Assembly (NCBI GenBank): GCA_043228905.1
Contig: JBHGNT010000015.1
Location: 10,602,001 to 10,666,000 of the forward strand
Direction of reading: 5' to 3'
Length of the DNA stretch: 64,000 nucleotides
Source of the DNA: Azolla caroliniana
Taxonomy: Eukaryota; Plantae; Polypodiophyta
Part shown: in pieces, positions 40,777 through 64,000 of the stretch
How positions within the stretch are numbered: position 1 is the first letter of the stretch
How the letters are laid out: every line of letters begins with the position of its first letter
Position numbers and translations under genes: made by a program
The notes under the pieces: generated by a model
The model's database searches: none
Told to the model about the DNA's origin: nothing
Seen by the model: the letters and a program-made list of their open reading frames with translations, nothing else

Positions 40777-40815
40777 ATCCCACATATAAAGACATGTTTG
40801 GGTGTGGCGTATAAG
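40777..40815 (+). promoter_or_regulatory. snRNA USE (ATCCCACAT) plus TATA for U2
   Basis: USE at -66, TATAA at -33. Confidence 0.85.
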
Positions 40816-40842
40816 AAGCAAACCAACTCACTATGGGAATTC

Positions 40843-41047
40843 ATACCTTTCTCGGCCTTTTGGCTAAGATCAAGTGTAGTATCTGTTCTTATCAGTTTAA
40901 TATCTGATACGTGGTCTATCAGGCCACATGATATTAACCTAATTTCTTTCATGGGGGCAGCTCCTGCCTGAGACAGCTTGCTGCCTCTGGGAGCTGCGTG
41001 CGTCGCCTCAGTCTTGCACTGCCTCTGAGGTCACACAGGCGCGCCCC
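40843..41047 (+). ncRNA. U2: U2 spliceosomal snRNA
   Basis: ATACCTTTCTCGGCCTTTTGGCTAAGATCAAGTGTAGTATCTGTTCTTATCAGTTTAATATCTGATA; loop IV TTGCAC; 3' end approximate. Confidence 0.97.
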
Positions 41048-41776
41048 CCTTTCAAATATGTTAAAGAAGAGAATAATAAATCTGAAGAAAAACTGCGGAT
41101 TACAGGAAAACCGCAGCAACACCACATTATTCACAGGATCTGATGAATGTGACACATGTCGATCAGGATATGCTTGGCGGCCGGCGGAAGGACCGACAGA
41201 TTTATATATACATCTGACCGAATTGGCCCATAGCTCTCTTATTTCATACCATTCCTGCTCGTGGCTCACAACAGAGACAAGACGCAGCTTTGCGATTAAT
41301 AATCATATTGTTATATTACATACCCATGGAGGGTTTGTCTTTTTCTTTTTGATTGGATGGATGTCTTGGACTGATTTCAACCACGTTCAGAATTAAGTTA
41401 CGGACGAAGTAAGTAGAAGACACCATGCATCAGAGGAAAGTATAGTGACTGATACATATATTTATATAATATATATATGGGAGAATTAGATGGGATGGAC
41501 ACAACCGTCGTTATGCATAAACATACATGGAGATGCACATGGAAAAAGTATGTTGAGAGGCCGACATATATAAAAATATTAGATCTCACAACCTTGGCTC
41601 AGGCCTCTCCTATTTCATACCATTTCCTGCTCGTGGTTAACACGGCAAAGTGCGAACTTGACTCGAAATCACACATTTCATTTAGTAATATCATGAGAAC
41701 AGTGATATAATGTTATAGGTTTGTAGATTGGCTATACGCAGTCTCTTAAATTAAACATTTTACATTCAATTGAGAA

Positions 41777-41938
41777 GGGGGCCGCGCGAACGCGAGCCCC
41801 CGCTGCCACAAATTATGACGTGCACTCTCCCACTTGGGGAGATGCTAGAGCAAACAGCCCCTCCGATAGTGCAATGGAGGCGCCGGCTCTAAGCCATCGG
41901 CCTTGCTGATCACCGATAGACCCCGCCCAGGTAAGTAT
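41777..41938 (-). ncRNA. U1: U1 spliceosomal snRNA
   Basis: ATACTTACCTGG start, GATCA loop I, ATTGCAC loop II, Sm site AATTTGTGG, TTCG stem-loop IV. Confidence 0.97.
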
Positions 41939-41963
41939 GTTCTAGAATCACTAAGCGCCTTCC

Positions 41964-42003
41964 TTTTATAGGCAACTCGCTTTGTTGCCTTTGTATGTGG
42001 GAC
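41964..42003 (-). promoter_or_regulatory. USE (GTCCCACAT) plus TATAAAA for U1
   Basis: USE at -65, TATA at -32. Confidence 0.88.
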
Positions 42004-42896
42004 AATTCTAATCTAATCTTTCACAATGCTGTTCATTGTATTTATTCTCACTATGACGATACGCACATTGCTTCCTTACTAACTAACCATCCCATTCCCC
42101 CTCCTATACATATGTATATATATGTATGTACACAATCAATCTAGGGTGAACGCCACTATTATTAGAGGGTGGGTGAGTGTGTGTGCCTCTAACCTTGCCC
42201 CGTACTTACTTCGCCCCTTCACGTCTCACATCTTGGACCTTGGTTCCTATCTATATATGTATATAGAGATATCACACCTCATACACACCCAATTCGACTC
42301 GATTTTCATTTATATACATATGTTACATACAATGTTTGGAGACCAAGGTTGTGACGTACAAACCAAGCACTAATGACGAGGGTTACAAAAGTTGTTGAGT
42401 ATCGTGGGAAGGAAACACCAATATATTATGCACATACAACCATACACCCTTGCATTCCATGACCACCATTTGTGAGATGTGATCCCCCCATCGACTTATA
42501 AACGAACATGGTTGAGAAGGCATTTGTGTTGCAACAAGTTGCAAGCTTTGGAGGAAAGGGAAGAAGAAGTGCAACGGATGAGCAAGACTATTCTTGAAGC
42601 CCCAAGGCCAAGAAATGTTGAGTAGGCTTGCAAGGCAAATCCTGCCACTCTATTGAAGACTTCAATGACATGGACATTGGTTGGGTAAAAAGCATATCCA
42701 AATCTAATGCACGTGTTCTTGAAAGCATTAAAGGATCGACCACTATACTAGAATAAAGGGTTCCATGTTTTTGCGAGACACATCCAATATGGTAGTGAAA
42801 ATCATACTTGAGTAGTCCTATGATCTGATGTGGTATTGGCCAACATACTACCGAAAAATGTGTTCGAAATTACTAGTCAATAACAATTTAGCTTGT

Positions 42897-43301
42897 GAAC
42901 CAAACCAAACCAAACCACGAAACCATGGCTTAACAGTTAAAACGATTTGGTTCAAGTTCAAGTTTTTGTAATCGGTTCGGATTGGGGGGGGTCAACACTG
43001 CAGTTTGAGCCTTTATCAACTTAATTTAATGGTTTCTGGTATAAACGGTTTGACAATTTAGGGTCGACACTTGATTATTTTCTTGAATATTGCTTTCACC
43101 AACCTTTTCATTTTTAGGCCTAATTTTCGCATTTTAGGAAAAATATTTAAAATGTTGAAATGTTGAAAGTTTTGAATTAAAACCTAACTTGAAGACAGAA
43201 ACCAAACCGTGAAAATGTGGTTTGAAAATCTCTAAAACCATTTGGTTTGAGTTTGGATTTTTTGTAACAGTTCAGTTTGAACTATTTGGGTTTAAACGTT
43301 T
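42897..43301. mobile_element. ~400-bp AACC/GGTT-rich insertion, MITE-like
   Basis: Two related AAACC..GGTTT modules; absent from the homologous inverted arm near 53530; TIR and TSD unclear. Confidence 0.4.
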
Positions 43302-43829
43302 GTTAGTTGAAAGCAAGTAGGCAATGTTGCCTCAATGTTACTTGTATGTTGTCATCTAAAACACATGATGAGCCCAACATTGGAACTCCTTGTCACCAAA
43401 CCGTTGTGCCTAGGAATCATGCTATGCTTCATTTATATGGTGTCCAAAACAAAAAAATGTAATTTCACATACACAAACCTACCCATAAACACAAGGTCAA
43501 TTACAAAGCCTTCCACTTACCCACTTATCCACATGCGAATAATGCCCATGGTAGTTCTCAAAGAATCTTGCATCTTAGGGTAAATTGGTGCCAAGAGAGA
43601 AAATGCATGATGACACTAAGTGATCATACCATTTCTCAATGACCAATGGACTTCAATGAGAATCATTAATCAAAACATGTGAGGCTAACATGGAGGGAAA
43701 ATGTGAACGAGATCCACTTCCTATCTAGACTTCAAACCTAAATCAAGTCCTGACTGACCTAAGACCTTGGGACAAAACAAAAGTTACCAAATTGGAGATA
43801 AGCGCCAAAATTGATTAGGTTCACAAATG

Positions 43830-44300
43830 GAACTCAAGTATCATGCCTACAACAAAATCTACCCCTATGCCCCTCACAAGCACCAAACGAACTTAATGTG
43901 TGGGTTAATAACATACATGTGGTCGCAACTGATAGTAAGGAAAAGTGAAGTTGGGACCATGACCAACTTTCTATACAAGAACGCAATCATGCATTGTGGG
44001 TGCCCTCTAGAGTTTGTAAGTAATGGATGTTCTCATTTCCTTAACAAAGGATGAGCGTTGAAAGAGATCCTCTAACTAACTACATGAGATGGAAAGGATG
44101 AGCAGAGAGCTCTAACAAGATTCTTTTTAGCTTCCTTACCAAAAAGTTGTCCTATCAAGAAGATCATATTAGAGCCAATAGAGACAATTGGAACGGTTTT
44201 ATTTTGAACTTCCTATGAGGGTACGAGCAAGAAACAATTGTGCCAATGCAGTTTTTAGCACCTAGACTACATATCGATGAAGCGGCTTTAAAAACGAAGG
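43830..44300 (+). pseudogene. highly decayed gypsy integrase remnant
   Basis: 'NFLYKNAIMHCGCPLEFVSNGCSHFLN' and a degenerate GQAESSNKIL. Confidence 0.55.
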
Positions 44301-46762
44301 GCCTAAACCCTAAAGCTTGTGCATTCACATCTCTGACCATTCTTTCGCATAATCCATGAGCATGGCTAACCAACCTAACCTAACCTAAACCGAAGTAGAC
44401 AATGGAAAATATAAAAACTGTGGCATTATTACACGCATACCAAATTTTGATTATAAAAAAGGAGTGCATGTCCCCTAGGACCCATGGTAGCATAATTGGA
44501 AGATATGGAAGCCAGCTATACATTAGGGTTTGGAAGACATGTCCTAATGTATCCAAACCACTTCCTGAAATTCAACTTGATGAGTAGAATTGCCCTTCAC
44601 ACATGTCAAGCCATGACCCACAAAATAACCTGTATTAATAAGCCAGATTATGAACATTTCAATTTTTATAAGAGAATGTCATGATTAGACATAACAAACC
44701 GTAAAGGAATGCTCAGAGTGAAAACCTAAACAAACGAGATTGGATTCGATTTAAATAAGAATTTGGATTTGGGAGCAAGTAGCAGGAAAGAGATAGAAGA
44801 TGCTAAGGATCTGTATTGCTAACAAGTTAATACGACCTGCAACATTGGGTTAATTAAAGAGCCAGTTCATAGATCAGCAGTCATTAATACGCTTGGAAAG
44901 AATTAAACACGGAGAATCTGGATTAAAAACTTGTTTAGGACATTTACCTGATGTACTTACTATTGGCAGGGGCGCTATGCTGCTGATAAAGAACACAGAA
45001 AGCAGTGACTTTCTAACTGGGAGTATGTAACACAGCTTTATTTGTCCTTGAGAGCTTTTTCTTTGTTCTGTTTCTCTTCTTGGTAGTATGTAATCAATGG
45101 AGTCTACTCGAGGTCCAGACAGACCTAACCTTCTTCTCCTTCTCCTTATAGACTGCCTAGGCATGACCAAATTCCTTCCCAAATCCCTTCATCTCTTCGC
45201 AGAGCTTCAAAGGTCTGAGATAGTGCAGAAAGCATGAGAAGCTTCTGAAGGAACATTGAAAGATTCCAGCTTTTTACTGACAGGGTACTAATTCATAGTT
45301 AATGGCTTGTTAGGAAAAATCCCCAGTTTCAAAACCCTGTTTCCCGTATACAAAACCCTGTTACACTTACTGACAATCTGGTATAATTCAAAATCACCAG
45401 TTTCATTCCATCAATTCTCTCATTTCTTTCCTTTTCGTTCCATTCCATTCTTCTTATATATCTCATTTCTTTCCTTTTACTTTCCTTTCATTCTTTTGAT
45501 AGCTGATCCAGATTGAAGGTCTTTGCATACATGTTTACCTACACATTCCCCATTGCTACCTTGTGGAAATTAGCATTCTTCTCACTCAAATTCATTCTAT
45601 TAATCCATCTCGTTCCATTCCATTCCATTTTTAGAGTAATACATACATTACTTTAGTGACCCTCATTTTTCACCATACATTACTTCTTGTTTGGTGCTCT
45701 ACATGTGAACATATATGTATCAAGGGAATGTATGTGTCGAATAGAAATGCAGAAACATTCTACTAAATCTTTACTAATTTCCTACTTCATCTCATGACTT
45801 TCTTGCATTCTCTCACAATCTCCAAATGGTGAATAAGAGACTCATCTGATTAGTTTGCATATGGTATGCGTTGTCAAACAAGAACAAAGAAAGCACAATA
45901 TGAGAAGAATGTAATTAGAATGATCCCCTCTTTCAATTATATACCATTTTGAATCCTATAGAGAAGATACATTAGACAATGTATACTACCATGGATCCAT
46001 TGAGCATGCATATAGTTGATTTGGCCAACAATTTAGCAATGTTGAGCCCATTAAGCCATCGTTATTTGGTTTCTAAATATTTGCCAATTCATACACTAAA
46101 TCTGTAAGCGTAATCAAGTAGATGGATGCAATCACACAAATATAAACCCCCAACTTTATATGAGGCTCAAAATTATGAGATTTGGAATACCGTTAGAGGA
46201 AATTAAAAATGACGGATGGACCCAGAGCACGTTCTGGAAAACACTAGAAATGGTGGAGGCCCCGAGAACAAGAACTGAGCACTTCTCTACATATGGGCTA
46301 AGGATGTGTTGTAAGGGGATGAGTATGTTGCTTGGGCTATTTTGGTTAGTAATGTGTGTGAAGTACCGAGATGTTATGGAAGGCATCAAGGTTTGTGATG
46401 AATCAAATGATACACTTACATTCCGTTTTGACAAAAAGATGCAACAATTTGCCCTATGTGTGGACAAATTATTCAGATTTAATGCAAATTCAATCCTTTT
46501 TTATCAAACTCAATTATGGTTCCAAAAAGAGTTATTGGTAGGTTGTTTCGTTGACATTGTTGTGTTTTTTATCATATGGGGCACGCTAGTAATGACATTT
46601 TTTGGGTATACATAACATGAAACAATCTCTCTGAAACTGGGGACTGAGCTTTGATTTTGAAAGACTGAATAGGCTTGACATTATTAGTTTGGAAGCTTCA
46701 AGTTAGAGTAGATATGGCAAAAATCTACACCAGAATAAGAAGAAGAGTTAAGTATGATGAAT

Positions 46763-46802
<40 letters not shown>

Positions 46803-47867
46803 TAGATCTTCCAGGATTTGACAGGAAAAAGGTGCAACAAATTTTTGAGCTAAAGTTCTTTTTACCCCTTTTCATTGGGTATCGGTTATATATCCTTTGA
46901 TTTAAGACATCAGGCTAAGGATACAAACAGTGTCATTAGATTTAACTGGAAAGTGATGCGGGACACCAGATCCTCTTATGCAATAAAGATATGGATACCA
47001 GAAACCCTAGCAAACAAACAGGATGTTATGTGCAAAGCACAATATGATTCTGTTAGACTATGTAAATGCACATGACAGTCATTCTCTTTGCTGGCAAAAG
47101 CAGTGATAAATTAGCCATCATAGATCACTTCTGTAATTAAGCAGAAGCTATAAACTATGGCCCCTTTAGCAAAAGAGATTTGGTAGCTATAATAAGGCCC
47201 TCTTTAGTTGGATAAGAATCGTTGCAACATCGAGAGATGAATTGAAGAAGAAACAGGCAACAAGGGAATGGTTTAATGGAAAGAAATAAGGAGAGTTACC
47301 ATAATAATAGTGGCAACAGTAATGGCAAGTACACGAACTTGGTTACCCCAAAATCCAAATAAAAAAATTTACATTGTTTCATGACAAAATTACATTGAAT
47401 CAAATTGAAATTATGTTCCAAATATTTAAAAACAACAATATTCATCAACAAAAATCAGATTTCTAAGTCTTTCACTATTTCATACAGAAGTCATGTAATC
47501 GCATTTCCCAGCTGTTGGAAAAGAAACACAAGTTTGTTCAATTTACAATGTTGGGAAACTACTTCTACATTTTGAAATTTATATTACAATTATATATTGA
47601 TAAAACCTGCTTTACGGTATGTAAGAACCTTTGCACCTAGAGATATAATCTGGGAGCAATTAGAGTGGTTGATCACCATTATGGAAGCGATTAGAGTGGT
47701 TGTGGGGATCTGTTTATATAATCATCGAGTGATTACTAGAGTGATTCTGGGGGCTGCCCTTTCAACGCTACCAAATGTCTATAGTAATGTGCGTGTATGT
47801 GGCATTGGCCTGCCTCCTATATATTAAGATGCCAACCTAACCCAAGGCAGATGACAGTAAATTTCAG

Positions 47868-47955
47868 AATCAGTACACACATAACAATCATCGAAATGCA
47901 CAGATCTACCTAATCAGTACACACATAACAATCATCGAAATGCACAGATCTACCT
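47868..47955. repeat. 44-bp perfect tandem duplication
   Basis: AATCAGTACACACATAACAATCATCGAAATGCACAGATCTACCT x2. Confidence 0.9.
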
Positions 47956-48244
47956 ATGCGACTTGAGATGATTCTTTTCTTTGAGGTATGAGAAACGCAC
48001 CGATCTATCTACCTGAGCGAATTGAGATACATACACAACAATGGAAACGAGATCATATGCCGCAATAATTCACACACCAGGGACTGATATAGATAAAATC
48101 CGTTGAAATGTAACAGAAATCAGCATCTATATAACTATCTTGGCAAATACAGCAGCAGGAGTCGATTATCCAGCATCTGCAGTTAAAAATCACGATAACT
48201 CCTTAAATTGATTGTTCCATTCATCATTTTCGAAAGGATTTTTT

Positions 48245-48404
48245 AGAGGCCCACTCCTCCGGAGAGGAGCAAGGGCCTTTGACAAAAATTCTCCGGGGTT
48301 CCCTTGCAGGAGCCGGGGAGGGGGGTTGGAAATAGTTTTCAACCAGCAATTGACGCGTCTCGGGAAGCCCTCACTAACTGCGTCATTGCCCCAAGCGCAA
48401 AGAT
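48245..48404 (-). ncRNA. U4: U4 spliceosomal snRNA
   Basis: ATCTTTGCGCTTGGGGCAATGACGCAG..TGAGG..GCGTCAATTGCTGGTTGAAAACTATTTCCAA; Sm site AATTTTTG; 3' stem-loop. Confidence 0.95.
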
Positions 48405-48429
48405 GAATAACAACAGAGAAGCCCCTCAC

Positions 48430-48470
48430 TATTTATAGCCATAGCCTTCCCTTGCCTTTCTATGTGGGAC
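48430..48470 (-). promoter_or_regulatory. USE (GTCCCACATAG) plus TATAAATA for U4
   Basis: USE at -66, TATA at -33. Confidence 0.88.
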
Positions 48471-50299
48471 GCCCAAATATTGCCTGCTAGACTCAGCCAC
48501 AGACCTAACCATTCATTCCATATTCCATATTCCATACTCAGATGTCCCATGGCACATAGATAAAGAGAAAGAAAGAAAGATATATTAACGTCTTTTCTAA
48601 CACCAAATTATGGCCCTAGAGAGAATCCTCAACGTGAATTGGGATATTTTGCCTCACCAAAATAAAACCCGAATGACCCACCCATATATGCCCATATGAT
48701 GCCTTCCATATGCATGTCCATTTACCTCTGAACATGCAAAAGATATAAATACATGTAGAAAACACTCAAGTATAGAAGAATTGAGATCCTTCAGAAAGGA
48801 ATAATTCCCTCTATTGTGGAGAGCATCACGATTAGCATTAGACAAGAATACAAGTCAAAGAAAACAATATTGAGGTGAGAACGCTTAGAGCATTTGTATT
48901 GTCTGGCTAGTATAACTTGAAAAATCGTCGATGATTATTGCTTACCAATTAATAGTGAATTAACACAAGAGCATTTGGCAAGTATGGGCAAAAAACATGG
49001 CTAATTAAAGACTAAAGATGAGTATATAATAATAATCTTTGAAGAATTAAGCATGGAGAATGAGTTAATAAGAGGATATGTTATAAAAGCATGGTGTTTT
49101 CATTCACAATAAAAGGCTAGTTCATATAAGAATATTCATTAATAAGAAAGATTAATTAAACACAAATAATGAATTAATTATTGACTAAGATGTTTACTTG
49201 AAATGCACAATTGAGAGTAACTACTTTCAAGCATGACATTTGACACATGATAAGATTTGTTTGTCCTTCGGAGCTTCTTATGTCTTCACTTTTTTTTTCT
49301 TTGTTGTAATAAAAAAAGCCTACTTGAGTTCCATAAAGAGCAACATGTAATGGGAAGTAGAACCATCACAAACAAATACAATTACACCCAAAATCAAACA
49401 AAAGAAATGAAAGTAAACCCTAAATGAAACAGAATTGAGCTTGTGGCCATGTTAGGAATGTCAAAAGCAATCTACTACTTGATTAGGAGGCAAAGGTGAT
49501 TTCATGGAAGTTATTTTAAATACAAACCAAGACTACAACATAAGGATTGCACAATACACCAAAATTGTTTATGTGAAAATTCTTTTAAGGGGGATAGAAA
49601 ACCACGAAACAAATTCTAGAAACGAATCACAATCAGTAAATAAAATGGAGTGCATCAACTTCCTTGTCTATATAAAACTCAAATGTTATATAACATGAAT
49701 CAATTTTCCTCTAATTCTTAAAGCCAACAAAGTAAAAGGTACCAAAAAACTCATTCCATGCAACTCCTAGTAATGGTGTATCGTGACCAACATGATACCG
49801 AACATGAGAACGTAATAGTTTATGTGTTAGAGTACATTGTGTCATTGATTTTATGTTAAAACAATGTGGCTTTTATGAATATACTTGTAGGCATCATGAT
49901 ATGCATAAAGAGGTGCAAATTGTTATTCAATCATCTATTAGTGTGTTACGTTGATTACATGCCTATATATCAGCACATTTTACCTCGAGACAGATATTGT
50001 TGGCCGAGGGGTTCTATTTGTTGTATACCCTAATAGTAGTGAACCGTGCAAGAGTTGTTGCCAATCACGCTTGAGTTGTTAGCCATGCAAACCCTAGCCT
50101 CATGAACCATCACTCTCACCTAACTACGACAAACCTAATTAAGAAGTTAACCTAAACCTTAAGCAAGCTTAAATTTATTAAGTAAGTACACACACATCTG
50201 AAGTCACAAAATGACACAATAGTACTCAACCTAACTTGATTAAGAAGGGAAGTCACATGCCAGAAACAAAAGAGGTATGATTAACGTTCAACTAATTAG

Positions 50300-51330: not shown

Positions 51331-51459
51331 ACCCCTTCACATTTGGTTTTGCAATATAGTGCTTTGGCCTTCTATCATGGGTTGCACCTTTGTCCACCTG
51401 TGGGCCTTAGTTAGTTACTTCCTAGAAGGCACTTGAGAGCCTTTTGTGGGGAACCATTG

Positions 51460-52071: not shown

Positions 52072-54520
52072 CATTGCACCTTTGACATTTTGGCCAAACC
52101 AGAATGTTTCTATATGTTTTGTAGGTTAGAGGTTGCCACTTTAGCTCATTGTAATTTGTTATACATTATAGTTGGTGTTATAGATTGTGCTAGTTCAAGG
52201 TCAGATCTTAGGACCGAGGGTCAATAGTTTGTTTGATATGGTCGTCCGAAGTCTCAACTAGCTTTCCATTCAAGATCATTGATGGTCAAAATTGCATGGT
52301 CCCTTGACGCAATCATGCACCTACTCTCATGACAAAAAATTTGTCCCAAAGGACATTGTTGCTTTGAGACTTCTGCAAGCAATAACTATAGATGAACAAT
52401 GGTTTGTCTTGTGGCCATTTTTACTAGGCAGAAGAAAAACATGAGGCAATATGTTGGCTTCCACAAGTAGCAATTGTACATGAATAACAGTTTGTCCTAT
52501 GCCCATTTTTACTAGGAGGGAGAAGAAAAACATAAGACAATATGTCTAATGTCAAAGGGAAAGTAAGGTTTCTAATATTAGCTAGTTGCGGTATATTTTT
52601 AACAAACTTTTGTTGGTAAAGTTGGGGAGGTCTTGTTTGTCAAAGTTTTTAAGTTTACATGCACTTGCTTTTGTGACCTATGCTATTATATAGGGACCCT
52701 CTCCCACAAGTTTGAGTTTCTCCTTATGACACTTTGAGGAGAACACGAGGGTTATGTACCTTTCCTCTAGGTCTTTGTCCTTGATCTTGTTATTGAACTA
52801 GACTTTACTTCTTGGATGACTATCTGTAGATTAGATATGACGAACTCCATTGGCACAATGGTGTCTTGCTTGTAGACTAGCCAAAATGGTGTGTCATGTG
52901 CCTACTTGATAGGAAGTTCAAAAACAAAATAGTGCCACACGTATCTATTGGCTATAATATGATCTTGATAATGATGACTATTTTAATAAGGACACTAAAA
53001 AATATATTTTCAGAGCTATCTCTCCACTTAGCCATGACATCTATGGTGGTAAGGGGAGCTCTTCGATGCTTGCCTAAAAGGCGAACCATGACATCATTAA
53101 GGTAATGAGAACATCAATCACTTCCAAACCTCTAGATCACATTCACATTCTCGTATAGGAATTTGGTTCTTGCATTTTTCTCAGTTTTGGTCACTTTTGT
53201 TTTGTCCCAAGATCTTAGCTCATAGAAATAAGACTTTTGTTTTGATGGGATTAACATGCTCATTGAAAAGAAAATGACACGAGCACTTGGTGCTATCATG
53301 CATTTTGTCTCTTGGCACTGATCTTTGACCCAAGATACAAGATTCTTCGAGAACTCACAAATGGATAAGTGTTTGGCTGGTGGACATCATTTTGATAGGG
53401 CATAAAAATGACTTGAGACAATAAGATGTCATACCTTCGAAACCCTTGGCTTGATCGCTTCGTGAAGATTTTGACATTAGATAACAACATTTGAAGTAAC
53501 ATTGAGGACAAATACTAACTACTTGGTTTCGACAATATTACAAGCATAATATGTTAGTCGATAAACACATCATATGTCTTTGTCAAAAACATGGAGCTCT
53601 TTTTTGTAGCATGCTAGTTAATCCTTTGATGCTTACGACAATACGAGCAATAGTTTTGTCTATGCTTTTTAATCCAATAATTGTCCATATTAATGAAATA
53701 TGCAACAGTATGGTGGGATCTACCCTTCAATCTTGCTAAGTGCACAAATCAATTCCACACTTACAACATTTGCTGGTGCTAGGGTGTCGAGGATAACCTT
53801 AACCTTGTATGGTTGCGTTTCATGAAGTTTTGGCAAAGGAGCCATCTAGTTCAAACAGTTAAAGTACGTTCAACTGAGTTGTGCTTCTATATATTTTTCT
53901 TGATGTAATACCATTAGGTTCAAATATTTGTCAATTGCACTGAACACCATTAAATTGCCAAGAAATGTTGCAATTTTTTTAGAAACAAGTCCAAGTCATT
54001 GTCCTACTATTGGCCATTCTTTGCGGGGCAAACAAATCCCGTTCCTTAATCATGTATGGGAATTGCATGAGTGGCACATCTGGTTGCTGTCTAGGGAGTG
54101 CAAAGGTGTATGGTTGTACGTGCATAATGCATTGGTGTTCCCTTCCCATGCTGTTGTACAACTCTTGTAACCCTCACCATCAATGCCTAGTTGGTACGTT
54201 ACAACCTTGGTCTCCAATAACTGTATGTAGCATACTTATGTATAAAAAGGAAAATTGAGGTGAGCTGGGTGTGTATGAGGTGTGATATTTGTATATACAT
54301 ATAGATAGGAACCAAGATCCAAGAAGTGAAGTGGCTAAGTACCGAGCGAGGCTACAGGGACACGCACTCACCCACCCACAAATAATAGTGGGCTGGTATT
54401 TTATAGATTGATTGTGTACAAAAGAAACACAGCATTATGAAAGATTAGATTCGAATTATCCCACCTAGAGAGGCCACATAGAGAGTTGGGTATAAAAAGA
54501 AGGAGCTTAGATGTAGAAAA

Positions 54521-54672
54521 GGCGGGGTCGATCGGTGATCAGGAAAGCTGATGGTTTAGGGCCGGCGCCTCCATTGCACTGCCGGAAGGGGCTGTTTGCC
54601 ATAGCATCTCCCCAATGTGGGAGAGTGCGCGTCATAATTTGTGGCAGCGGGGTCTCGCGTTCACGTGCCCCC
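54521..54672 (+). pseudogene. U1: U1 snRNA variant or pseudogene lacking the 5' ATACTTACCTG
   Basis: U1 body from about nt 12 onward with loop II and Sm site; USE-like ATCCCACCT at 54458 and TATAAAA at 54491. Confidence 0.88.
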
Positions 54673-55046
54673 CTTATCAATTTAATTCAATGTAGTGCAG
54701 TTGCCCGATTAAATGAGTTCTCCACTCCTACTGTGATTTCTGGAAAGCAAACGAATTTCCACTTGGTGGTAGTGCATGATTTTCATCATAATCCGCCTCC
54801 TATCCTGTTGCAAACGAATCTCTGCAATTAAAACCTCAGTGTGGGATTTCAAGTCTAGTTCTCACTTTTGCCATGTGAGCCTTTCGCTTCGTGACGATTC
54901 TGTCGAGAAGGACCGAAGCAAGGTCTCGAGGCAATTATTTCAAAGACTTCGAGCGAGTGTCAAGCTGCTTGCTATTTCGCCATGACATTTCTTAGAAGCT
55001 CCCGACGGCATTCAACATGGCCTGTATTTGTTTGATTCCTTGAACC

Positions 55047-55182
55047 TCTATTGGAAGGGGTTAGGACGTGTAGATTAATCGATTAGTCTATTGGAAGGGG
55101 TTAGTCTATTTGAAGGGGTTAGGACGTGTAGATTAATCGATTAGTCTATTGGAAGGGGTTAGGACGTGTAGATTAATCGATT
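55047..55182. repeat. ~40-bp minisatellite, about 3.5 copies
   Basis: CTATTGGAAGGGGTTAGGACGTGTAGATTAATCGATTAGT units. Confidence 0.85.
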
Positions 55183-55709
55183 TCTCTCTTCCCAATCGCT
55201 CAGAAAGTCAGTCAAAGCTTACAAACAGGAAATGGTGTTGAATAGGAAAGGCATGATCCGAGGTGGTCAGATCTAACCTCACTGTCGGCCTCTGCCCTCT
55301 CAACATCCATTTTTTCCATGTGCACCTCCATGTATATGCATTAAGGACGTTTGTATATGCATGGCGTCTTCTCCTTAATTCGTCCGGAATTTAATTGCAA
55401 ACGTGCTTCAAATCTGTCTTAAGGCATCTAACAATGTCTAAGAAAGACGGAGCCTCCCTCTATGGTATGTAAAACGAATGATTAAAATAATAGCGAAACT
55501 GCGTTTTGTTGCTCCTGTGAGGAACGGGCCAATTCGGTCAGATGTATAAATCTGTTGGCCGAAGCATATATATCCTGGTTCCATGTGCACATACATTGAA
55601 CGGTTTATGGTTTTTATTCCATAAACTATCAGTCGGATTTTCCGTTTAATTTGAAGAGCCCATTTTAAACTACAGTATATTATTCTTCTCAAATTTGAAT
55701 TTGTAATGG

Positions 55710-55932
55710 AGGGCTGCAAGACTGAGGCGACGCACAAGCATTACCTCAAGAGGCAGTGCAAGATTGAGGCGACGCACACAACTCCCAGAGGTAGCAAGCT
55801 GTCTCGGGCAGAATCTGCCCCCATTAAAAGAAATTAGATTAATAACATGTAGCCTGATAGGCACATATCAGATATTTAACTGATAAGAACAGATACTACT
55901 CTTGATCTTAGACAAAAGGCTCAGAAAGCTAT
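55710..55932 (-). pseudogene. U2: divergent U2 variant or pseudogene with partly duplicated stem-loop IV
   Basis: ATAGCTTTCTGAGCCTTTTGTCTAAGATCAAGAGTAGTATC...; USE at 55997 (-65), TATA at 55964; repeat with 42-bp period at 55715/55757. Confidence 0.88.
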
Positions 55933-56481
55933 AGTTTGCCCATTGCCCCTCTCTGCTTCTTATAGGCTACTGTTAAGAAGGCTTTAATATGTGGGATATA
56001 TATATATATATATATATATCTATGTCTGGCTACCATATTCGCATTATCTGGCACCAAGCAACAATAATAATACCACACAAGCTTTTCACACTACAAACCA
56101 AGCTCATTTCGCCCTTCTCCCATAAATGCCCCATTAAACTATAGAGGCCTAATTTAAATCCATTTTGTGATCCTTCATAGAATTATATTCGCTAGCTCTT
56201 CACCACCAACACCTAGACAATGAAGTAAGTGTGTGTAGCTTTGATACATTGGTTTCTAGTGCAGAAATATGGGAGGTTGGTTGATATTCGTCAAGATTGA
56301 CAACCTCGTAATATAGGACTGTGCCACCGTCAAGCAACCGTTTGGCTCTCTTCACGCTACACCTAGACTCGACCACCAAAACCTTTCTTGAAGTGGGAGA
56401 GTTATTTTTACCTATAACTTCTTATGTAATAAGTTTCACTCTTTTCGTCCCTTCCATGGGTAAGATTTTGGTGGAGAAAAG

Positions 56482-56534
56482 ATGGTAATAAATATTCAAC
56501 CCGATGAAATTAGCAATATCATCCGAAAGCAATT
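56482..56534 (+). other. atpA: plastid atpA 5' fragment (NUPT)
   Basis: Translates MVINIQPDEISNIIRKQ, matching the plastid ATP synthase CF1 alpha N-terminus. Confidence 0.7.
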
Positions 56535-56912
56535 TCGTGGATACACGCGACGAGCTGCACACGCGTCGATGTAAAATCTAGTTCACTTCTGTGCCTTGGG
56601 CGCCAGGACCACGAGAGACCACATACGTACGCCTAACGACCATAGGCGGACGCCCGCCGCATCCTCCATTTATCTTCTCTCCCATTCCAATAGTGTTCTT
56701 CTTTAGCCCGGGCATCGGTGTGGTCGGTTTCTCTACGACGTTCACCATGCGTTGAAAGCCTTCCGTTCTAGTACGTAAAGAAATATTTGGGAAAAGATAG
56801 ATATGCATAAATCTAGAACGTTCATCCACGTGACATCGTCCTTCATATTATCATTAGAAGCGGGAGGCGCCTATGTAACATCTTCCTTCAGTTTTATTAT
56901 CATTGTAGAATG

Positions 56913-57117
56913 AGGGCGCGCCTATGTGACCTCAACGTCAGTGCAAGGCTGAGGCGACGCACGCAACTCCCAAAAGCAGCAAGCTGCCTCGAGCGGGAGC
57001 TGGCCCCATGAAAGAAATTAGGTTAATATCGTGCGGCCTGATAGGCCGCGTATCAGATATTAAACTGATAAGAACAGATACTACACTTGATCTTAGCCAA
57101 AAGGCCGAGAAAGGTAT
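56913..57117 (-). ncRNA. U2: U2 snRNA (array unit 1)
   Basis: Canonical 5' half; USE at 57183 (-66), TATA at 57150 (-33). Confidence 0.96.
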
Positions 57118-59171
57118 GAGTTCTCTTGAAGCCCCGATTTGCTTCTTATAGGCTGCACCCTAACATGCCTCCCCATGTGGGATATACGTATAATCATCTC
57201 AACATTTAAGCAAACTTTGGTCCTCTCATTGCATCGAAACCACCTTAGCCAATCCTAGGGACCACATTTGACACTTGTTGTTTTGGTTGTAGCCACCTTA
57301 TTATCCATCCCTATACCAAGTCGGGATATACATACTCTCCCATCGCCAGGTGCACCTTATAGGTGCGATTCGTTATTGGTGGTTATAAGCCCCCATATCT
57401 GAACCAAACGAACGTTCACGAAATCGTGTGAGCTTCCCGAATCGAACGAGAGTTGTAATGGAGATCCACCCGTTTGCACGTAGTAAATCATTAGGCCCCA
57501 CTGCATGTCGAGGGAAAGAGCATTTACAATTACTTGAACGACCGACGCGCATAAACCTCAAGGAAATATGTTCCGCATCGTTGCAGCTAGGTAGCTACGT
57601 TCTCGCGTTACCCAACCTCAAGTCTCGTCATGACAACGGCACACACTAACGAGCAACCTAATGGCCACGCCGACACGCGCCCTCTTCTCCGCATTGAAGC
57701 TAGTGTGGCCCGTCACATGGTTATTTCATGACCAATGCGTTTCACAATGATGGTCTCGTGACGCCCCCCTAATCAAGTAACGAACGGGGGAGACTCGATG
57801 CGGGATTCGTAAGGGCGGCCCAATGAGAAGTTGGTCTAACCCTAATTCCCCTTAAATGGATGGGGAATGGGCGCGCGCCCATTTCTAAGGCAACATACAC
57901 ACCGTGGCCATGCTTTGCGAAATTTTTACATATGGCACAATCGGGGCGACCGAGGGTAGTAGCACTAATTTCGTTAAATAAGGATGGTCACCGCACCTTC
58001 CCCACAGAAATGCGAGGACGGGCACCGCGACCCTAAACCCCGAAACACACACCATCATACATAGGATACCGATATCGTATAACGAATTCCGAACACGCAC
58101 ACTACATGTATGGGACATGTATAACATCGCATAGGCATACACGCGATCCCATCCACATGCGTACATAAACGGACCTTAAACAAAGACGCAATCCAATGAC
58201 GATGTAATCGAGACGCGTGATCAACGCCTTTGGCCTCTACGGACACTCGACGATCGGGGGAGTATATGAAACAGGAGGTTTGAGGCATTGACCCGATACA
58301 CGTATGACACAACATCTCCTATCGAACATGTACTATATATGGATTTCGAATAACGGAGTGGATAGTGTAATACGTAATGTAGGCGTAAACCTCACAAGCA
58401 ATACATTTAACACGCATACGGTTTCTACGCATAAAGTATGACCAAGACAACATGATCTAACGATCTATACGTCAAAATAGTGACTTCAACATGTACAAGC
58501 AAGGGAGAAGACGATAAAGCACATGAAGAACATCCCTGATGTATCTCAAGGTTTGTGTTGTTGCTATTTCCGTGCTTCGTCTTATATTTCCTCCGGCCTT
58601 GCAACGCACGACCTGAAGTTCTTGCTCCCGACGTTCCAAACTTTTAGAAAGCGTTGTATCTCCTCCTCATATTTGCGCAAATTGTGCGCTTGGGAGACGG
58701 GAAGTGATGCTCAAAATTTACCGATGTGAGACATGCGCCTCAGTGGTCACGTTCTTCAACTGTCGACGGGGATTGCACAAGCGACGCACGCGTGGATTCA
58801 CGTCTCGGCCAGTGCTCAAGGATTGTGCGAGCGTGTTGGTTGTACATGGACATCGCATCGGTGTTTCCCTCCTTTGTTATTCTACAGCTTCGGCAACCCA
58901 TCGCCATTAACGCACGGTTCTACGTCACGACGCGCATGGTTTCTCCCCAGCCGTTGTACTTAAATTAATTACAAGAAGGAGACGGTAGGTGAGGTTGGAG
59001 CGTGTGTTGTGTGATCTATAGATATGAACGGAAACGGGAAGGGGCTAAAACATGGACGAGGTTAAAGTGAACCACTAATAGCGAGTGGGTAGATTGACGT
59101 GAGAGGATGGTGGCGCGATGACGGTTGTGCGTGCGTGCGTGTCATGGTGAATACAGGCGCGGGATAAGAAC

Positions 59172-59212
59172 GTCCCACATACAGAGGATGCAGAGCAAGG
59201 GGGCTATAAAAC
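59172..59212 (+). promoter_or_regulatory. USE (GTCCCACAT) plus TATAAAA for array U1
   Basis: USE at -65, TATA at -32; repeated at +3301. Confidence 0.88.
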
Positions 59213-59236
59213 GGGAGCGTTGCGCTAAGCCAAAGC

Positions 59237-59398
59237 ATACTTACCTGGGCGGGGTCAATCGGTGATCAAGAAGGCCGATGGCTTAGGGCCGGTGCCTCCA
59301 TTGCACCACCGGAGGGACTGCTTGCCCTAGCATCTCCCCAAGCGGGAGAGTGCACGTCATAATTTGTGACAGCAGGGGCTCGCGTTCGCGCGGCCCCC
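59237..59398 (+). ncRNA. U1: U1 snRNA (array unit 1)
   Basis: ATACTTACCTGG..., ATTGCAC, AATTTGTG, TTCG stem-loop IV. Confidence 0.96.
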
Positions 59399-60213
59399 AT
59401 CTCAATCCAGTGATATCAAGTCGGCCACGTTTGGCGGAAGCATTGGTCGCTCATGGCGGATTCGTCTCAAATGATGCGCTTATGCTTGATCGTCAAGTTG
59501 GCCATGTTTGGCGGAAGCGTCGGTTGCGCTAAGAGTCCCTCGGCATTTTGCTTGGCGGAGGCATCTTATTTTTTGGTGGCTTCCCTCGGCCATGCATGTT
59601 ATGCATAATGATTTGGAGGAAGCACCTGTTGCTTTCACATTTTAAATACATTTTCACCTGCTCGGTAGATCAAAATATGGTTTCAGACACCCAACACAAC
59701 ACAGATTTCCACTACCCTGAGAAATGAGAGGAGCATAAAGAGCCATCAAGCGGAGATATACACGTATAGGATATACACATGTCATAGGTCGGAGGTGGCA
59801 CATGGCGTATCCATGGTAAGAGTGAAGAGAATTGTGAGTGGATACACGCGACGAGCTGCACACGCGTCGATGTAAAATCTAGTTCACTTCTGTGCCTTGG
59901 GCGCCAGGACCACGAGAGACCACATACGTACGCCTAACGGCCATAGGCGGACGCCCGCCGCATCCTCCATTTATCTTCTCTCCCATTCCAATAGTGTTCT
60001 TCTTTAGCCCGGGCATCGGTGTGGTCGGTTTCTCTACGACGCTCACCATGCGTTGAAAGCCTTCCGTTCTAGTACGTAAAGAAATATTTGGGAAAAGATA
60101 GATATGCATAAATCTAGAACGTTCATCCACGTGACATCGTCCTTCATATTATCATTAGAAGCGGGAGGCGCCTATGTAACATCTTCCTTCAGTTTTATTA
60201 TCATTGTAGAATG

Positions 60214-60418
60214 AGGGCGCGCCTATGTGACCTCAACGTCAGTGCAAGGCTGAGGCGACGCACGCAACTCCCAAAAGCAGCAAGCTGCCTCGAGCGGGAG
60301 CTGGCCCCATGAAAGAAATTAGGTTAATATCGTGCGGCCTGATAGGCCGCGTATCAGATATTAAACTGATAAGAACAGATACTACACTTGATCTTAGCCA
60401 AAAGGCCGAGAAAGGTAT
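60214..60418 (-). ncRNA. U2: U2 snRNA (array unit 2)
   Basis: Identical to unit 1 copy. Confidence 0.96.
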
Positions 60419-62537
60419 GAGTTCTCTTGAAGCCCCGATTTGCTTCTTATAGGCTGCACCCTAACATGCCTCCCCATGTGGGATATACGTATAATCATCT
60501 CAACATTTAAGCAAACTTTGGTCCTCTCATTGCATCGAAACCACCTTAGCCAATCCTAGGGACCACATTTGACACTTGTTGTTTTGGTTGTAGCCACCTT
60601 ATTATCCATCCCTATACCAAGTCGGGATATACATACTCTCCCATCGCCAGGTGCACCTTATAGGTGCGATTCGTTATTGGTGGTTATAAGCCCCCATATC
60701 TGAACCAAACGAACGTTCACGAAATCGTGTGAGCTTCCCGAATCGAACGAGAGTTGTAATGGAGATCCACCCGTTTGCACGTAGTAAATCATTAGGCCCC
60801 ACTGCATGTCGAGGGAAAGAGCATTTACAATTACTTGAACGACCGACGCGCATAAACCTCAAGGAAATATGTTCCGCATCGTTGCAGCTAGGTAGCTACG
60901 TTCTCGCGTTACCCAACCTCAAGTCTCGTCATGACAACGGCACACACTAACGAGCAACCTAATGGCCACGCCGACACGCGCCCTCTTCTCCGCATTGAAG
61001 CTAGTGTGGCCCGTCACATGGTTATTTCATGACCAATGCGTTTCACAATGATGGTCTCGTGACGCCCCCCTAATCAAGTAACGAACGGGGGAGACTCGAT
61101 GCGGGATTCGTAAGGGCGGCCCAATGAGAAGTTGGTCTAACCCTAATTCCCCTTAAATGGATGGGGAATGGGCGCGCGCCCATTTCTAAGGCAACATACA
61201 CACCGTGGCCATGCTTTGCGAAATTTTTACATATGGCACAATCGGGGCGACCGAGGGTAGTAGCACTAATTTCGTTAAATAAGGATGGTCACCGCACCTT
61301 CCCCACAGAAATGCGAGGACGGGCACCGCGACCCTAAACCCCGAAACACACACCATCATACATAGGATACCGATATCGTATAACGAATTCCGAACACGCA
61401 CACTACATGTATGGGACATGTATAACATCGCATAGGCATACACGCGATCCCATCCACATGCGTACATAAACGGACCTTAAACAAAGACGCAATCCAATGA
61501 CGATGTAATCGAGACGCGTGATCAACGCCTTTGGCCTCTACGGACACTCGACGATCGGGGGAGTATATGAAACAGGAGGTTTGAGGCATTGACCCGATAC
61601 ACGTATGACACAACATCTCCTATCGAACATGTACTATATATGGATTTCGAATAACGGAGTGGATAGTGTAATACGTAATGTAGGCGTAAACCTCACAAGC
61701 AATACATTTAACACGCATACGGTTTCTACGCATAAAGTATGACCAAGACAACATGATCTAACGATCTATACGTCAAAATAGTGACTTCAACATGTACAAG
61801 CAAGGGAGAAGACGATAAAGCACATGAAGAACATCCCTGATGTATCTCAAGGTTTGTGTTGTTGCTATTTCCGTGCTTCGTCTTATATTTCCTCCGGCCT
61901 TGCAACGCACGACCTGAAGTTCTTGCTCCCGACGTTCCAAACTTTTAGAAAGCGTTGTATCTCCTCCTCATATTTGCGCAAATTGTGCGCTTGGGAGACG
62001 GGAAGTGATGCTCAAAATTTACCGATGTGAGACATGCGCCTCAGTGGTCACGTTCTTCAACTGTCGACGGGGATTGCACAAGCGACGCACGCGTGGATTC
62101 ACGTCTCGGCCAGTGCTCAAGGATTGTGCGAGCGTGTTGGTTGTACATGGACATCGCATCGGTGTTTCCCTCCTTTGTTATTCTACAGCTTCGGCAACCC
62201 ATCGCCATTAACGCACGGTTCTACGTCACGACGCGCATGGTTTCTCCCCAGCCGTTGTACTTAAATTAATTACAAGAAGGAGACGGTAGGTGAGGTTGGA
62301 GCGTGTGTTGTGTGATCTATAGATATGAACGGAAACGGGAAGGGGCTAAAACATGGACGAGGTTAAAGTGAACCACTAATAGCGAGTGGGTAGATTGACG
62401 TGAGAGGATGGTGGCGCGATGACGGTTGTGCGTGCGTGCGTGTCATGGTGAATACAGGCGCGGGATAAGAACGTCCCACATACAGAGGATGCAGAGCAAG
62501 GGGGCTATAAAACGGGAGCGTTGCGCTAAGCCAAAGC

Positions 62538-62699
62538 ATACTTACCTGGGCGGGGTCAATCGGTGATCAAGAAGGCCGATGGCTTAGGGCCGGTGCCTCC
62601 ATTGCACCACCGGAGGGACTGCTTGCCCTAGCATCTCCCCAAGCGGGAGAGTGCACGTCATAATTTGTGACAGCAGGGGCTCGCGTTCGCGCGGCCCCC
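62538..62699 (+). ncRNA. U1: U1 snRNA (array unit 2)
   Basis: Identical to unit 1 copy. Confidence 0.96.
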
Positions 62700-63514
62700 A
62701 TCTCAATCCAGTGATATCAAGTCGGCCACGTTTGGCGGAAGCATTGGTCGCTCATGGCGGATTCGTCTCAAATGATGCGCTTATGCTTGATCGTCAAGTT
62801 GGCCATGTTTGGCGGAAGCGTCGGTTGCGCTAAGAGTCCCTCGGCATTTTGCTTGGCGGAGGCATCTTATTTTTTGGTGGCTTCCCTCGGCCATGCATGT
62901 TATGCATAATGATTTGGAGGAAGCACCTGTTGCTTTCACATTTTAAATACATTTTCACCTGCTCGGTAGATCAAAATATGGTTTCAGACACCCAACACAA
63001 CACAGATTTCCACTACCCTGAGAAATGAGAGGAGCATAAAGAGCCATCAAGCGGAGATATACACGTATAGGATATACACATGTCATAGGTCGGAGGTGGC
63101 ACATGGCGTATCCATGGTAAGAGTGAAGAGAATTGTGAGTGGATACACGCGACGAGCTGCACACGCGTCGATGTAAAATCTAGTTCACTTCTGTGCCTTG
63201 GGCGCCAGGACCACGAGAGACCACATACGTACGCCTAACGGCCATAGGCGGACGCCCGCCGCATCCTCCATTTATCTTCTCTCCCATTCCAATAGTGTTC
63301 TTCTTTAGCCCGGGCATCGGTGTGGTCGGTTTCTCTACGACGCTCACCATGCGTTGAAAGCCTTCCGTTCTAGTACCTAAAGAAATATTTGGGAAAAGAT
63401 AGATATGCATAAATCTAGAACGTTCATCCACGTGACATCGTCCTTCATATTATCATTAGAAGCGGGAGGCGCCTATGTAACATCTTCCTTCAGTTTTATT
63501 ATCATTGTAGAATG

Positions 63515-63719
63515 AGGGCGCGCCTATGTGACCTCAACGTCAGTGCAAGGCTGAGGCGACGCACGCAACTCCCAAAAGCAGCAAGCTGCCTCGAGCGGGA
63601 GCTGGCCCCATGAAAGAAATTAGGTTAATATCGTGCGGCCTGATAGGCCGCGTATCAGATATTAAACTGATAAGAACAGATACTACACTTGATCTTAGCC
63701 AAAAGGCCGAGAAAGGTAT
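63515..63719 (-). ncRNA. U2: U2 snRNA (array unit 3)
   Basis: Identical to unit 1 copy. Confidence 0.96.
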
Positions 63720-64000
63720 GAGTTCTCTTGAAGCCCCGATTTGCTTCTTATAGGCTGCACCCTAACATGCCTCCCCATGTGGGATATACGTATAATCATC
63801 TCAACATTTAAGCAAACTTTGGTCCTCTCATTGCATCGAAACCACCTTAGCCAATCCTAGGGACCACATTTGACACTTGTTGTTTTGGTTGTAGCCACCT
63901 TATTATCCATCCCTATACCAAGTCGGGATATACATACTCTCCCATCGCCAGGTGCACCTTATAGGTGCGATTCGTTATTGGTGGTTATAAGCCCCCATAT

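Follow-up and report, generated by a model that had tools for sequence, protein, structure and literature searches.

Which RNA polymerase transcribes the snRNA genes of the fern Azolla caroliniana, and what in their promoters decides it? The one-helical-turn rule is the textbook case in which the geometry of a promoter determines the RNA polymerase. In angiosperms, the gap between USE and TATA measures 32-34 bp in Pol II genes and 23-24 bp in Pol III genes (Waibel and Filipowicz, via PMC8287931), and the same source states the one-turn rule for vascular plants generally. The initial annotation of a 64,000-nt stretch of Azolla DNA (GCA_043228905.1, contig JBHGNT010000015.1, positions 10,602,001 to 10,666,000, forward strand; hereafter, the window) had described all U1, U2 and U4 promoters as having a short, U6-like spacing, and proposed that this lineage either selects its polymerase by another rule or has switched polymerase. 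The plastid rbcL of this genome matches an Azolla entry exactly. A literature search, whose reach stopped short of one relevant figure and one table, found no prior report on the spacing of fern snRNA promoters.

snRNA genes and their promoters in the window

An Rfam scan of the window identified ten snRNA loci within 40843-63719, comprising five U2, four U1 and one U4 (Table 1). Each exceeds the gathering score of its U1, U2 or U4 model, at 89-146 bits; two are degenerate. All ten carry a type 3 promoter, that is, RTCCCACAT and a TATA at a fixed distance and ~30 nt 5' of the start, in one case with a one-base USE variant. The seven pairs of USE and TATA coordinates listed in the initial annotation proved exact on recheck, and the start-to-start distance of 33 nt, which leaves 22 bp separating TATA from the 11-mer USE, recurs at three additional tandem copies. 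In the nine loci whose 5' end is complete, the USE starts at -65/-66; the U1 at 54518 is truncated. An exact USE 9-mer would fall at one of three set positions with p ~2e-5 per site, and chance is excluded as the source of this arrangement. The internal T4 of U2, the internal T5 of U4 and 3' ends without an adjoining T-run were likewise all seen. No tRNA was found in the window.

Only seven of these promoters are distinct, as a single 3301-bp tandem unit, whose copies are 99.9% identical, accounts for five of the ten loci. The array runs past the window end, with at least nine U1 copies listed on contig C15 at 3301-bp steps. The U1 gene at 41775..42003 is convergent with the U2 gene at 40777..41049. 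Rfam places the U4 end at 48267, and the terminal stem extends to ~48248, like that of other copies. The U1 at 54518 and the U2 at 55731 are likely pseudogenes; the latter scores 98 bits, with an altered branch-pairing region and 3' end. At 58115/61416, a USE-like site followed by a TATA at 34 falls within TA/CA-rich sequence; it has no Rfam match and was treated as chance. Separate from the snRNA loci, a USE/TATA site with the same offset of 32 as these genes (counted as below) is found in the LTR of a retroelement.

Table 1. Coordinates of snRNA loci and USE/TATA promoters in the window
Feature	Span	Strand	USE	TATA	Remarks
LTR retroelement site	20075..20115	-		TATAAAAG at offset 32	in 5' LTR (20283-19498)
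U2 snRNA gene	40777..41049	+	40777-40787	TATAAGAA at 40810	gene 40843-41049
U1 snRNA gene	41775..42003	-	42003-41993	TATAAAAG at 41970	gene 41938-41775
U4 snRNA gene	48248..48470	-	48470-48460	TATAAATA at 48437	start 48404; internal T5
U1 copy, likely pseudogene	54458..54675	+	54458-54468 (variant)	TATAAAAA at 54491	first 9-10 nt lost
U2 copy, likely pseudogene	55731..55997	-	55997-55987	TATAAGAA at 55964	degenerate
U2 gene of tandem unit	56911..57183	-	57183-57173	TATAAGAA at 57150	
Tandem array	56537..64000	.			3301-bp unit, convergent U1/U2 pair
U1 gene of tandem unit	59172..59400	+	59172-59182	TATAAAAC at 59205	gene 59237-59400
U2 gene, tandem copy 2	60212..60484	-	60484	60451	
U1 gene, tandem copy 2	62473..62701	+	62473	62506	
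U2 gene, tandem copy 3	63513..63785	-	63785	63752	

Two promoter classes in one genome

With offsets counted from the T that opens the USE core (TCCCAC), TATA lies at 31-33 in all 75 distinct U1, U2, U4, U5 and U12 promoters among the matches listed, leaving a gap of 21-23 bp. Among these matches, the first TATA starts at 32 in 19/19 U1, at 31-32 in 21/21 U2 and at 31-33 in 22/22 U5 promoters; it starts at 32 in 12/12 U4 promoters and in the sole U12 match. The sequence reads TATAA in 74/75 (class form TATAA(A/G)), and one U5 promoter has TATATA at 31. Neither a TATA at 40-45 nor a USE at -72 to -80 occurs in any of the 75 listed, and in all 75 the gap falls short of the 32-34 bp of angiosperm Pol II promoters, which is one turn longer than in U6/U3. 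Relative to seed plants, the Azolla gap of ~22 bp is 11 bp shorter. In Azolla the USE takes the form RTCCCACATA, followed by a conserved AAAGGC. A CA initiator at +1 was rejected as a Pol II mark, since U3 has it too.

Might the short-spaced loci be pseudogenes or one amplified variant, with working long-spaced genes elsewhere? Two window loci are degenerate, the counts cover only the best-scoring matches (U1, 30 of 42; U2, 30 of 47; U5, 20 of 44), and promoter copies inside one family are related. Identical upstreams and copies missing the 5' anchor patterns were left out of the counts; for U4, 19 loci yielded 12 distinct anchored upstreams. However, the 75 short promoters among the matches listed stem from five families, the sole U12 match included, and many contigs; their spacers have diverged, while USE, TATA and distance stay fixed. 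Moreover, related U2 genes on independent metagenome contigs share the spacing. Such an artefact has already been largely refuted, and we regard it as hardly credible.

The Pol III-type genes of the same genome behave differently. Among the matches listed, TATA starts at offset 34-38 in 41/41 Pol III-type promoters (U6, 18/18; U3, 12/12; 7SL, 9/9; one U6atac and one MRP candidate), against 0/75 of the Pol II type, and the first TATA reads TATATA in 39/41. These counts omit upstreams without a USE, namely 9 of 27 for U6 and 1 of 13 for U3 (degenerate, most such U6 lying beside AG repeats) and 2 of 3 U6atac matches. The U6 TATATA at 34 lies two bases beyond the U1/U2/U4 TATA at 32. Instead of being ~10 bp shorter still, as expected had the rule been kept but shifted, the gap of Pol III-type genes (~24 bp in U6/U3) is 2-4 bp longer than that of the Pol II type. 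Without a 10-bp shift of its Pol III-type promoters, Azolla has no one-turn difference, which supports the proposal that another rule selects the polymerase. The label "U6-like" fits the short spacing only approximately, given that a shift of 2-4 bp and the TATA sequence keep the classes distinct. Likely, it is this shift together with the TATA sequence that tells Pol II and Pol III genes apart in Azolla.

At the level of families, the classes separate 5 versus 5 (p=0.004, with the boundary set post hoc), and their nearest members, a U5 at 33 and the MRP candidate at 34, are 1 bp apart. The MRP candidate, a locus under the Rfam cut-off at 33.6 bits, has a U2-like TATAAG, yet at offset 34 and with a T5 end, which points to register. 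An additional TATA at 30-33 is present in 10/41 Pol III-type promoters.

Transcript ends and internal T runs

A run of T>=4 marks the 3' end of 37/37 Pol III-type genes versus 3/66 of the Pol II type. Within the transcribed bodies, the longest T run is <=3 in all 37 Pol III-type genes, and a run of >=4 occurs in 53/53 U2/U4/U5/U12 bodies, U1 having only T3. The promoters of the Azolla genome fall into two groups without overlap, one with TATAA(A/G) at 31-33 and the other with TATATA reaching 34-38, and the 3' ends divide in the same way.

These counts bear on the idea that U1, U2, U4 and U5 moved to Pol III in Azolla, the short spacing then being plain Pol III spacing. U3 did move to Pol III in plants. 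The 22-bp gap is near the 23-24 bp of Arabidopsis Pol III genes (PMC8287931), and the angiosperm 3' box is absent: in its strict form, CA(N)3-10AGTNNAA (PMC5079582), it occurs in only 2/66 Azolla Pol II-type flanks, compared with 27/63 for seed-plant-type U2. This means that a positive Pol II mark is missing, which counts against Pol II transcription of these genes. A CA-rich 3' flank was considered as a substitute mark and is weak, being found in 18/37 Pol III-type flanks as well. Nevertheless, we find the switch of polymerase raised by the initial annotation unsupported and very improbable: T-run terminators are lacking, internal T4-T5 runs are present, and the geometry never equals that of Pol III genes, whose register occurs in 0/75 promoters. 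In addition, the 32-register promoter also occurs in an LTR, a place where Pol II should be required.

What selects the polymerase?

We favour the reading that Azolla U1, U2, U4, U5 and U12 are still transcribed by Pol II, and that the polymerase is probably chosen by TATA position together with TATA sequence. Both the polymerase used and the deciding feature are what we infer as likely from sequence. USE-bound SNAPc would recruit TFIIIB and Pol III if TBP finds a site at the conserved ~34-38 position. This signal would be dominant, because a TATA at 32 is present as well in some U6 copies. Where 34-38 holds no such site and a one-way TATAAA or TATAAG stands at 31-33, the partners of SNAPc would be TBP-TFIIA-TFIIB and Pol II.

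Alternatively, the genes may still use Pol II and the TATA sequence alone decides, one-way TATAAA/TATAAG serving TFIIB and symmetric TATATA serving TFIIIB, with the offset of 2-4 bp incidental. The near-complete split of TATAA (74/75) and TATATA (39/41) fits this well, and the human case lends it weight, too: there, the 3-nt difference has been argued to be non-causal and U6 tolerates changes of -2/+3 nt (PMC11696126), which counts against a register model. Set against it are the MRP candidate, combining TATAAG with a T5 end, the U5 with TATATA at 31, and TATATA both in moss-type U2 promoters and in U3 contig ends from runs that contain the moss-type U2. We consider sequence alone an unlikely determinant.

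Somewhat less likely still, Pol II transcription could be specified in the 3' flank of the USE and the spacer, setting SNAPc conformation in an insect-like manner, or by lineage-specific factors, the TATA differences being secondary. Drosophila and other insects offer a precedent (PMC1761439), and family-weighted base differences between the classes reach 0.74 at offset 20 and 0.73 at offset 23. Spacers of U6/U3/U6atac are also richer in A+T (0.73-0.78) than those of U1/U2/U4/U5 (0.38-0.54), with 7SL (0.59) and MRP (0.53) intermediate, so promoter features are confounded. In contrast, no base is fixed differently in the two classes across the USE and AAAGGC (offsets 0-16), where the maximum is 0.49 at offset 9, whereas TATA position separates them fully.

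Comparison with other promoter systems

Azolla shares with angiosperms the two elements, the USE core, a TATA ~32-33 nt before the start, the Pol III gap, and the split of genes between classes, with U3 grouped with U6. The differences lie in the Pol II-type gap, which in Azolla is shorter than the Pol III gap and not one turn longer, in the USE (RTCCCACATCG in angiosperms, PMC9845283, versus RTCCCACATA plus AAAGGC) and in the near-absence of the strict 3' box. Human SNAPc promoters resemble those of Azolla in that the upstream element lies near the TBP site in Pol II genes, TBP positions are 3 nt apart between Pol II and Pol III complexes, and a TATA placed where Pol III genes have theirs serves as the Pol III signal (PMC9758055, PMC11696126). 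Human Pol II snRNA promoters are TATA-less, however, whereas those of Azolla have a strong TATAAA/TATAAG; element sequences differ, and the core of plant SNAPc consists of three subunits (PMC10533338). In insects, where PSEA is paired with PSEB or TATA, both classes likewise have two elements at near-equal distance (PMC1761439). In green algae, type 3 promoters are TATA-less for Pol II and TATA-rich for Pol III (PMC8287931). Like Azolla, they lack a one-turn difference; unlike Azolla, where every Pol II-type promoter has a TATA, 8 of 9 algal-type U2 promoters (USE at -68 to -70; the algal label is inferred) have none.

Metagenome U2 promoters of the long, seed-plant type have TATA at 41-44 in 75/89, which matches the published Arabidopsis gap of 32-34 bp (PMC8287931). 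Moss-type U2 promoters have it at 37 in 12/15, as the hexamer TATATA. As the TATATA of Physcomitrium patens U6 lies at 34 (PMC5253467 supplement; counted by eye), a putative Pol III position near 34 is conserved across moss, fern and angiosperm, the moss comparison of U2 with U6 joining different species. The Pol II position, by contrast, is 37 in the moss type, 32 in Azolla and 43 in the seed-plant type, and this variation among lineages makes the extra helical turn a likely seed-plant feature. A conserved helical phase, with Azolla's 32 plus one turn giving the seed-plant 43, was rejected: moss-type U2 at 37 is half a turn off both, so that the phase is not general and the Azolla spacing cannot be called ancestral.

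Further searches around these loci added little. U6 promoter patterns gave 0 matches in genome_contigs and viral_contigs, and Rfam found no U6 or U3 beside U2 in 20 metagenome loci. Contigs of four runs aligned to the Azolla U3 locus with 30 upstream letters visible, with TATATA near -31 and no USE within those 30. Pfam searches of 119 flank ORFs of moss-type loci returned Arf and PPR pieces only, which did not place the lineage.

Implications

A fern without the one-turn difference means that the rule looks restricted to seed plants. We tentatively suggest, at somewhat less than even confidence, that the code was rewritten more than once in land plants, with the Pol III register of ~34 kept and the Pol II register moved (to 37 in mosses, 32 in Azolla and 43 in seed plants). 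The Azolla code would then be reversed in sign, such that inserting 2-3 bases would convert a Pol II promoter into a Pol III one, and the fern's Pol II-type SNAPc promoter would have been taken up by a family of abundant LTR retroelements.

Azolla provides natural promoter pairs that share their upstream element and fall into two classes, both with a TATA, whose positions differ by 2-4 bp, and these make testable the dispute over human SNAPc as to whether a spacing of a few bases or the TATA itself picks the polymerase. There is also a practical side: applied to ferns, the angiosperm spacing would label Pol II promoters as Pol III, which would affect the classification of unknown USE-TATA RNAs—telomerase RNA, lncRNAs and small RNAs—and the choice of guide-RNA promoters in ferns.

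USE–TATA spacing in Azolla snRNA genes

Do Azolla snRNA promoters obey the rule stated for vascular plants, by which Pol II genes carry about one helical turn more between the upstream element (USE, core TCCCAC) and TATA than Pol III genes? The spacing observed here contradicts it. The initial annotation had claimed a short, U6-like spacing for U1, U2 and U4, and this spacing is real and genome-wide. The offset, measured between the T of the USE core and the T that opens TATA, was 32 in all ten snRNA loci (five U2, four U1, one U4) that an Rfam search placed at 40843-63719 of the window; subtracting 10 from it gives the gap behind the 11-mer USE, and 32 equals the annotation's 33, counted from the purine before the T. 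The ten loci hold seven distinct promoters, five of which lie on intact genes; the other two belong to a U1 truncated at its 5′ end (54518) and a degenerate U2 (55731).

A tandem unit of 3301 bp, in which U1 and U2 form a convergent pair, accounts for five of these loci; its copies are 99.9% identical. Near-identical 3.3-kb arrays occur at more than one place on contig C15 and on small contigs, alongside dispersed, diverged U1/U2 pairs. In the unit's spacer (58115 and 61416, minus strand), a USE-like site with one mismatch has a TATA at 34; no Rfam family matched downstream, and the site is probably due to chance. The first 40 kb of the window hold many retrotransposon-like ORFs (recognised by eye; four tested).

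Features located in this analysis
Feature	Location	Strand	Remarks
MRP RNA candidate	L084 (fetched locus):1500-1920		~420 nt; below Rfam cut-off; USE, TATAAG at 34, T5 end
U1/U2 tandem array	window 56537-64000, continuing on C15		also at L098-L114
LTR retroelement	window 20283-15201	(-)	LTRs with TG...CA ends; weak gag match (E=0.04)

The assembly (523 Mb, 1503 contigs) is treated as that of Azolla, a water fern: its plastid rbcL protein matches a database entry labelled Azolla caroliniana without any difference, an identity that does not fix the species. From it we took 20 of 44 U5, 30 of 47 U2, 30 of 42 U1, 19/19 U4 and 1/1 U12 Rfam matches as Pol II-type, and 30 of 48 U6, 15/15 U3, 18/18 7SL and 3/3 U6atac matches plus the single MRP candidate as Pol III-type. 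Identical upstream sequences were merged before counting, and copies lacking a USE (9/27 U6, 1/13 U3, 2/3 U6atac) or 5′ anchors were left out. Among the matches listed, the offset was 32 in 19/19 distinct U1 promoters, 32 in 18 and 31 in three U2 promoters, and 31, 32 and 33 in four, ten and eight U5 promoters; it was 32 in 12/12 distinct U4 promoters and at the sole U12 match. TATAA was read in 74 of the 75 listed Pol II-type promoters, and in none of the 75 does a TATA fall within 40-45 or a USE within -72 to -80.

Among the Pol III-type matches listed, U6 has TATATA from 34 or, in 9/18, a longer TA run beginning at 32; U3 carries TTTATATA at 34 in most copies and a TATA at 36 in 12/12, 7SL offsets span 33-37, and U6atac lies at 36. 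A TATA starting at 34-38 was found in 41/41 Pol III-type versus 0/75 Pol II-type promoters, and one at 30-33 in 10/41 versus 75/75, again among the matches listed. Promoter copies are inter-related, and we take the family-level test as the fair one (5 versus 5, p=0.004, with the boundary set after seeing the data). A rule kept but shifted, with U6 and U3 10 bp shorter still, does not fit: they are instead 2-4 bp longer, and their TATA position is that of Arabidopsis Pol III promoters (gap 23-24 bp, PMC8287931).

Several side observations accompany these promoters. A conserved AAAGGC(A) follows the USE at offsets 10-16 in all Azolla snRNA promoters of both classes, giving an element of ~18 bp. 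Microsatellites of the (AG)n or (CT)n type often border promoter-less U6, U3 and U6atac copies (L019-L030, L044, L250), which suggests retrocopies inserted at simple repeats. Eight 7SL genes (L047-L054) are identical, and a 1629-bp tandem array on contig C19 holds seven of the eight. The MRP candidate would start ~8 nt upstream of its Rfam match if the usual distance applies.

Which polymerase, and how is it chosen?

Pol III termination at T runs is established (PMC10533338). Among the matches listed, four or more Ts end 37/37 loci of the Pol III type, 33 of them with at least T5, versus 3/66 loci of the Pol II type; no run longer than T3 occurs within bodies of the Pol III type, and T4 or longer lies inside 53/53 U2, U4, U5 and U12 bodies, with T3 in U1. 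These patterns argue that U1, U2, U4, U5 and U12 are still Pol II genes, which we hold to be highly probable from sequence. The polymerase switch that the initial annotation had offered as one explanation is very unlikely, opposed by the same terminators and internal T runs. One feature speaks against a plain Pol II assignment: the Arabidopsis 3′ box (PMC5079582) appears in just 2/66 Azolla Pol II-type flanks versus 27/63 seed-plant-type U2 flanks among the matches listed; a CA/A-rich flank stands in its place.

SNAPc occupies the upstream element and serves as a ruler for TBP (PMC9758055). The human complexes of the two polymerases place TBP 3 nt apart, with SNAPc flipped, and whether spacing causes this difference is disputed (PMC11696126). 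From the directly established promoter geometry, TATA sequences and 3′ ends, we infer a mechanism in which a TBP site at 34-38, usually a symmetric TATATA, would license TFIIIB and be dominant; where a one-way TATAAA/TATAAG lies at 31-33 and 34-38 holds no such site, the promoter would enter the TFIIA/TFIIB path. Such a combined code of register and sequence is the reading we lean towards for Azolla. Register alone would be strained, as U5 at 33 and the MRP candidate at 34 leave it a margin of 1 bp. TATA sequence alone is strained likewise: the MRP candidate reads TATAAG, one U5 reads TATATA, and so does moss-type U2, like the U3 contig ends from runs that contain it. An insect-like code in the USE flank or spacer (PMC1761439) is possible, as the classes differ at spacer positions 20 and 23 and in A+T content, but neither the USE nor the AAAGGC extension holds a fixed class difference.

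Other plant lineages

Metagenome contigs scanned for a USE and a U2 5′ end gave at least 130 loci and at least 121 distinct promoters. At least 89 place the USE at -74 to -77, with TATA at 41-44 in 75 and no strict-pattern call in 14 of those listed; we label them seed-plant type because their spacing agrees with that published for Pol II genes of angiosperms, gymnosperms not having been identified among the loci. Outside this group, L131 is a seed-plant-type U2 that lacks 12 bp of spacer, its TATA lying at 31 against 43 in sister copies, and so represents a natural deletion of one turn. At least 15 loci (including L135, L149 and L167) pair a moss-type U2 body with a TCCCATA USE at about -69, and of those listed, 12 have TATA at 37, one has it at 40 and two have none; TATATA at 37 is half a turn off both Azolla and seed plants. 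Their moss origin is likely; for one, 6/19 holder runs are labelled moss metagenome, the remaining organisms being coded. At least nine divergent promoters, mostly without TATA, have the USE at -68 to -70 and may be algal, consistent with PMC8287931. L195 has its USE at -71 and no strict-pattern TATA.

At least six metagenome U2 promoters share offset 31-32. The three that are full-length cluster with the U2 genes of the window at 100/99 support, as does a further U2 copy from L171, which marks these loci as close relatives and is no proof of the trait across all ferns. Azolla U2 (window genes, L085-L114) is 207 nt, ~12-13 nt longer than moss-type matches, and sits on a long branch of the U2 tree.

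In Physcomitrium patens, U6 has TATATA at 34, counted by eye in the PMC5253467 supplement, and for it and Ceratodon a 25-bp U6 gap is stated (10.1101/2023.10.25.562971). Together with the Azolla and angiosperm data, this places the Pol III offset at ~34 in moss, fern and angiosperm. The Pol II-type offset varies: 37 in moss-type, 32 in Azolla and 43 in seed-plant-type promoters.

The Azolla promoters are a variant of the known promoter system, not a separate new one. No account of such spacing in ferns turned up in the literature searched; subscription papers lay mostly outside the search, and an earlier mention is possible, above all for mosses. Bryophytes are covered in Fig. 6 and Table S1 of PMC8287931, which may show their spacing; the search also covered PMC11638000, PMC9845283, PMC12133305 and PMC6765143, and PMC6004067 gave no matches for the terms searched.

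An LTR family with a possible snRNA-type promoter

In the LTR of the window's retroelement, a USE is followed at offset 32 by TATAAAAG; this is the register of Azolla Pol II-type snRNA genes. A family search gave 2374 candidates at first look; in the best 30 genomic copies (L302-L331), which count as one family, the USE core is exact in 27 and TATA lies at 32 in all 30. The chance of such a USE/TATA pair in one LTR family is ~2e-5, and judged by these motifs the family may have captured a SNAPc promoter. If functional, this LTR promoter would link offset 32 to Pol II.
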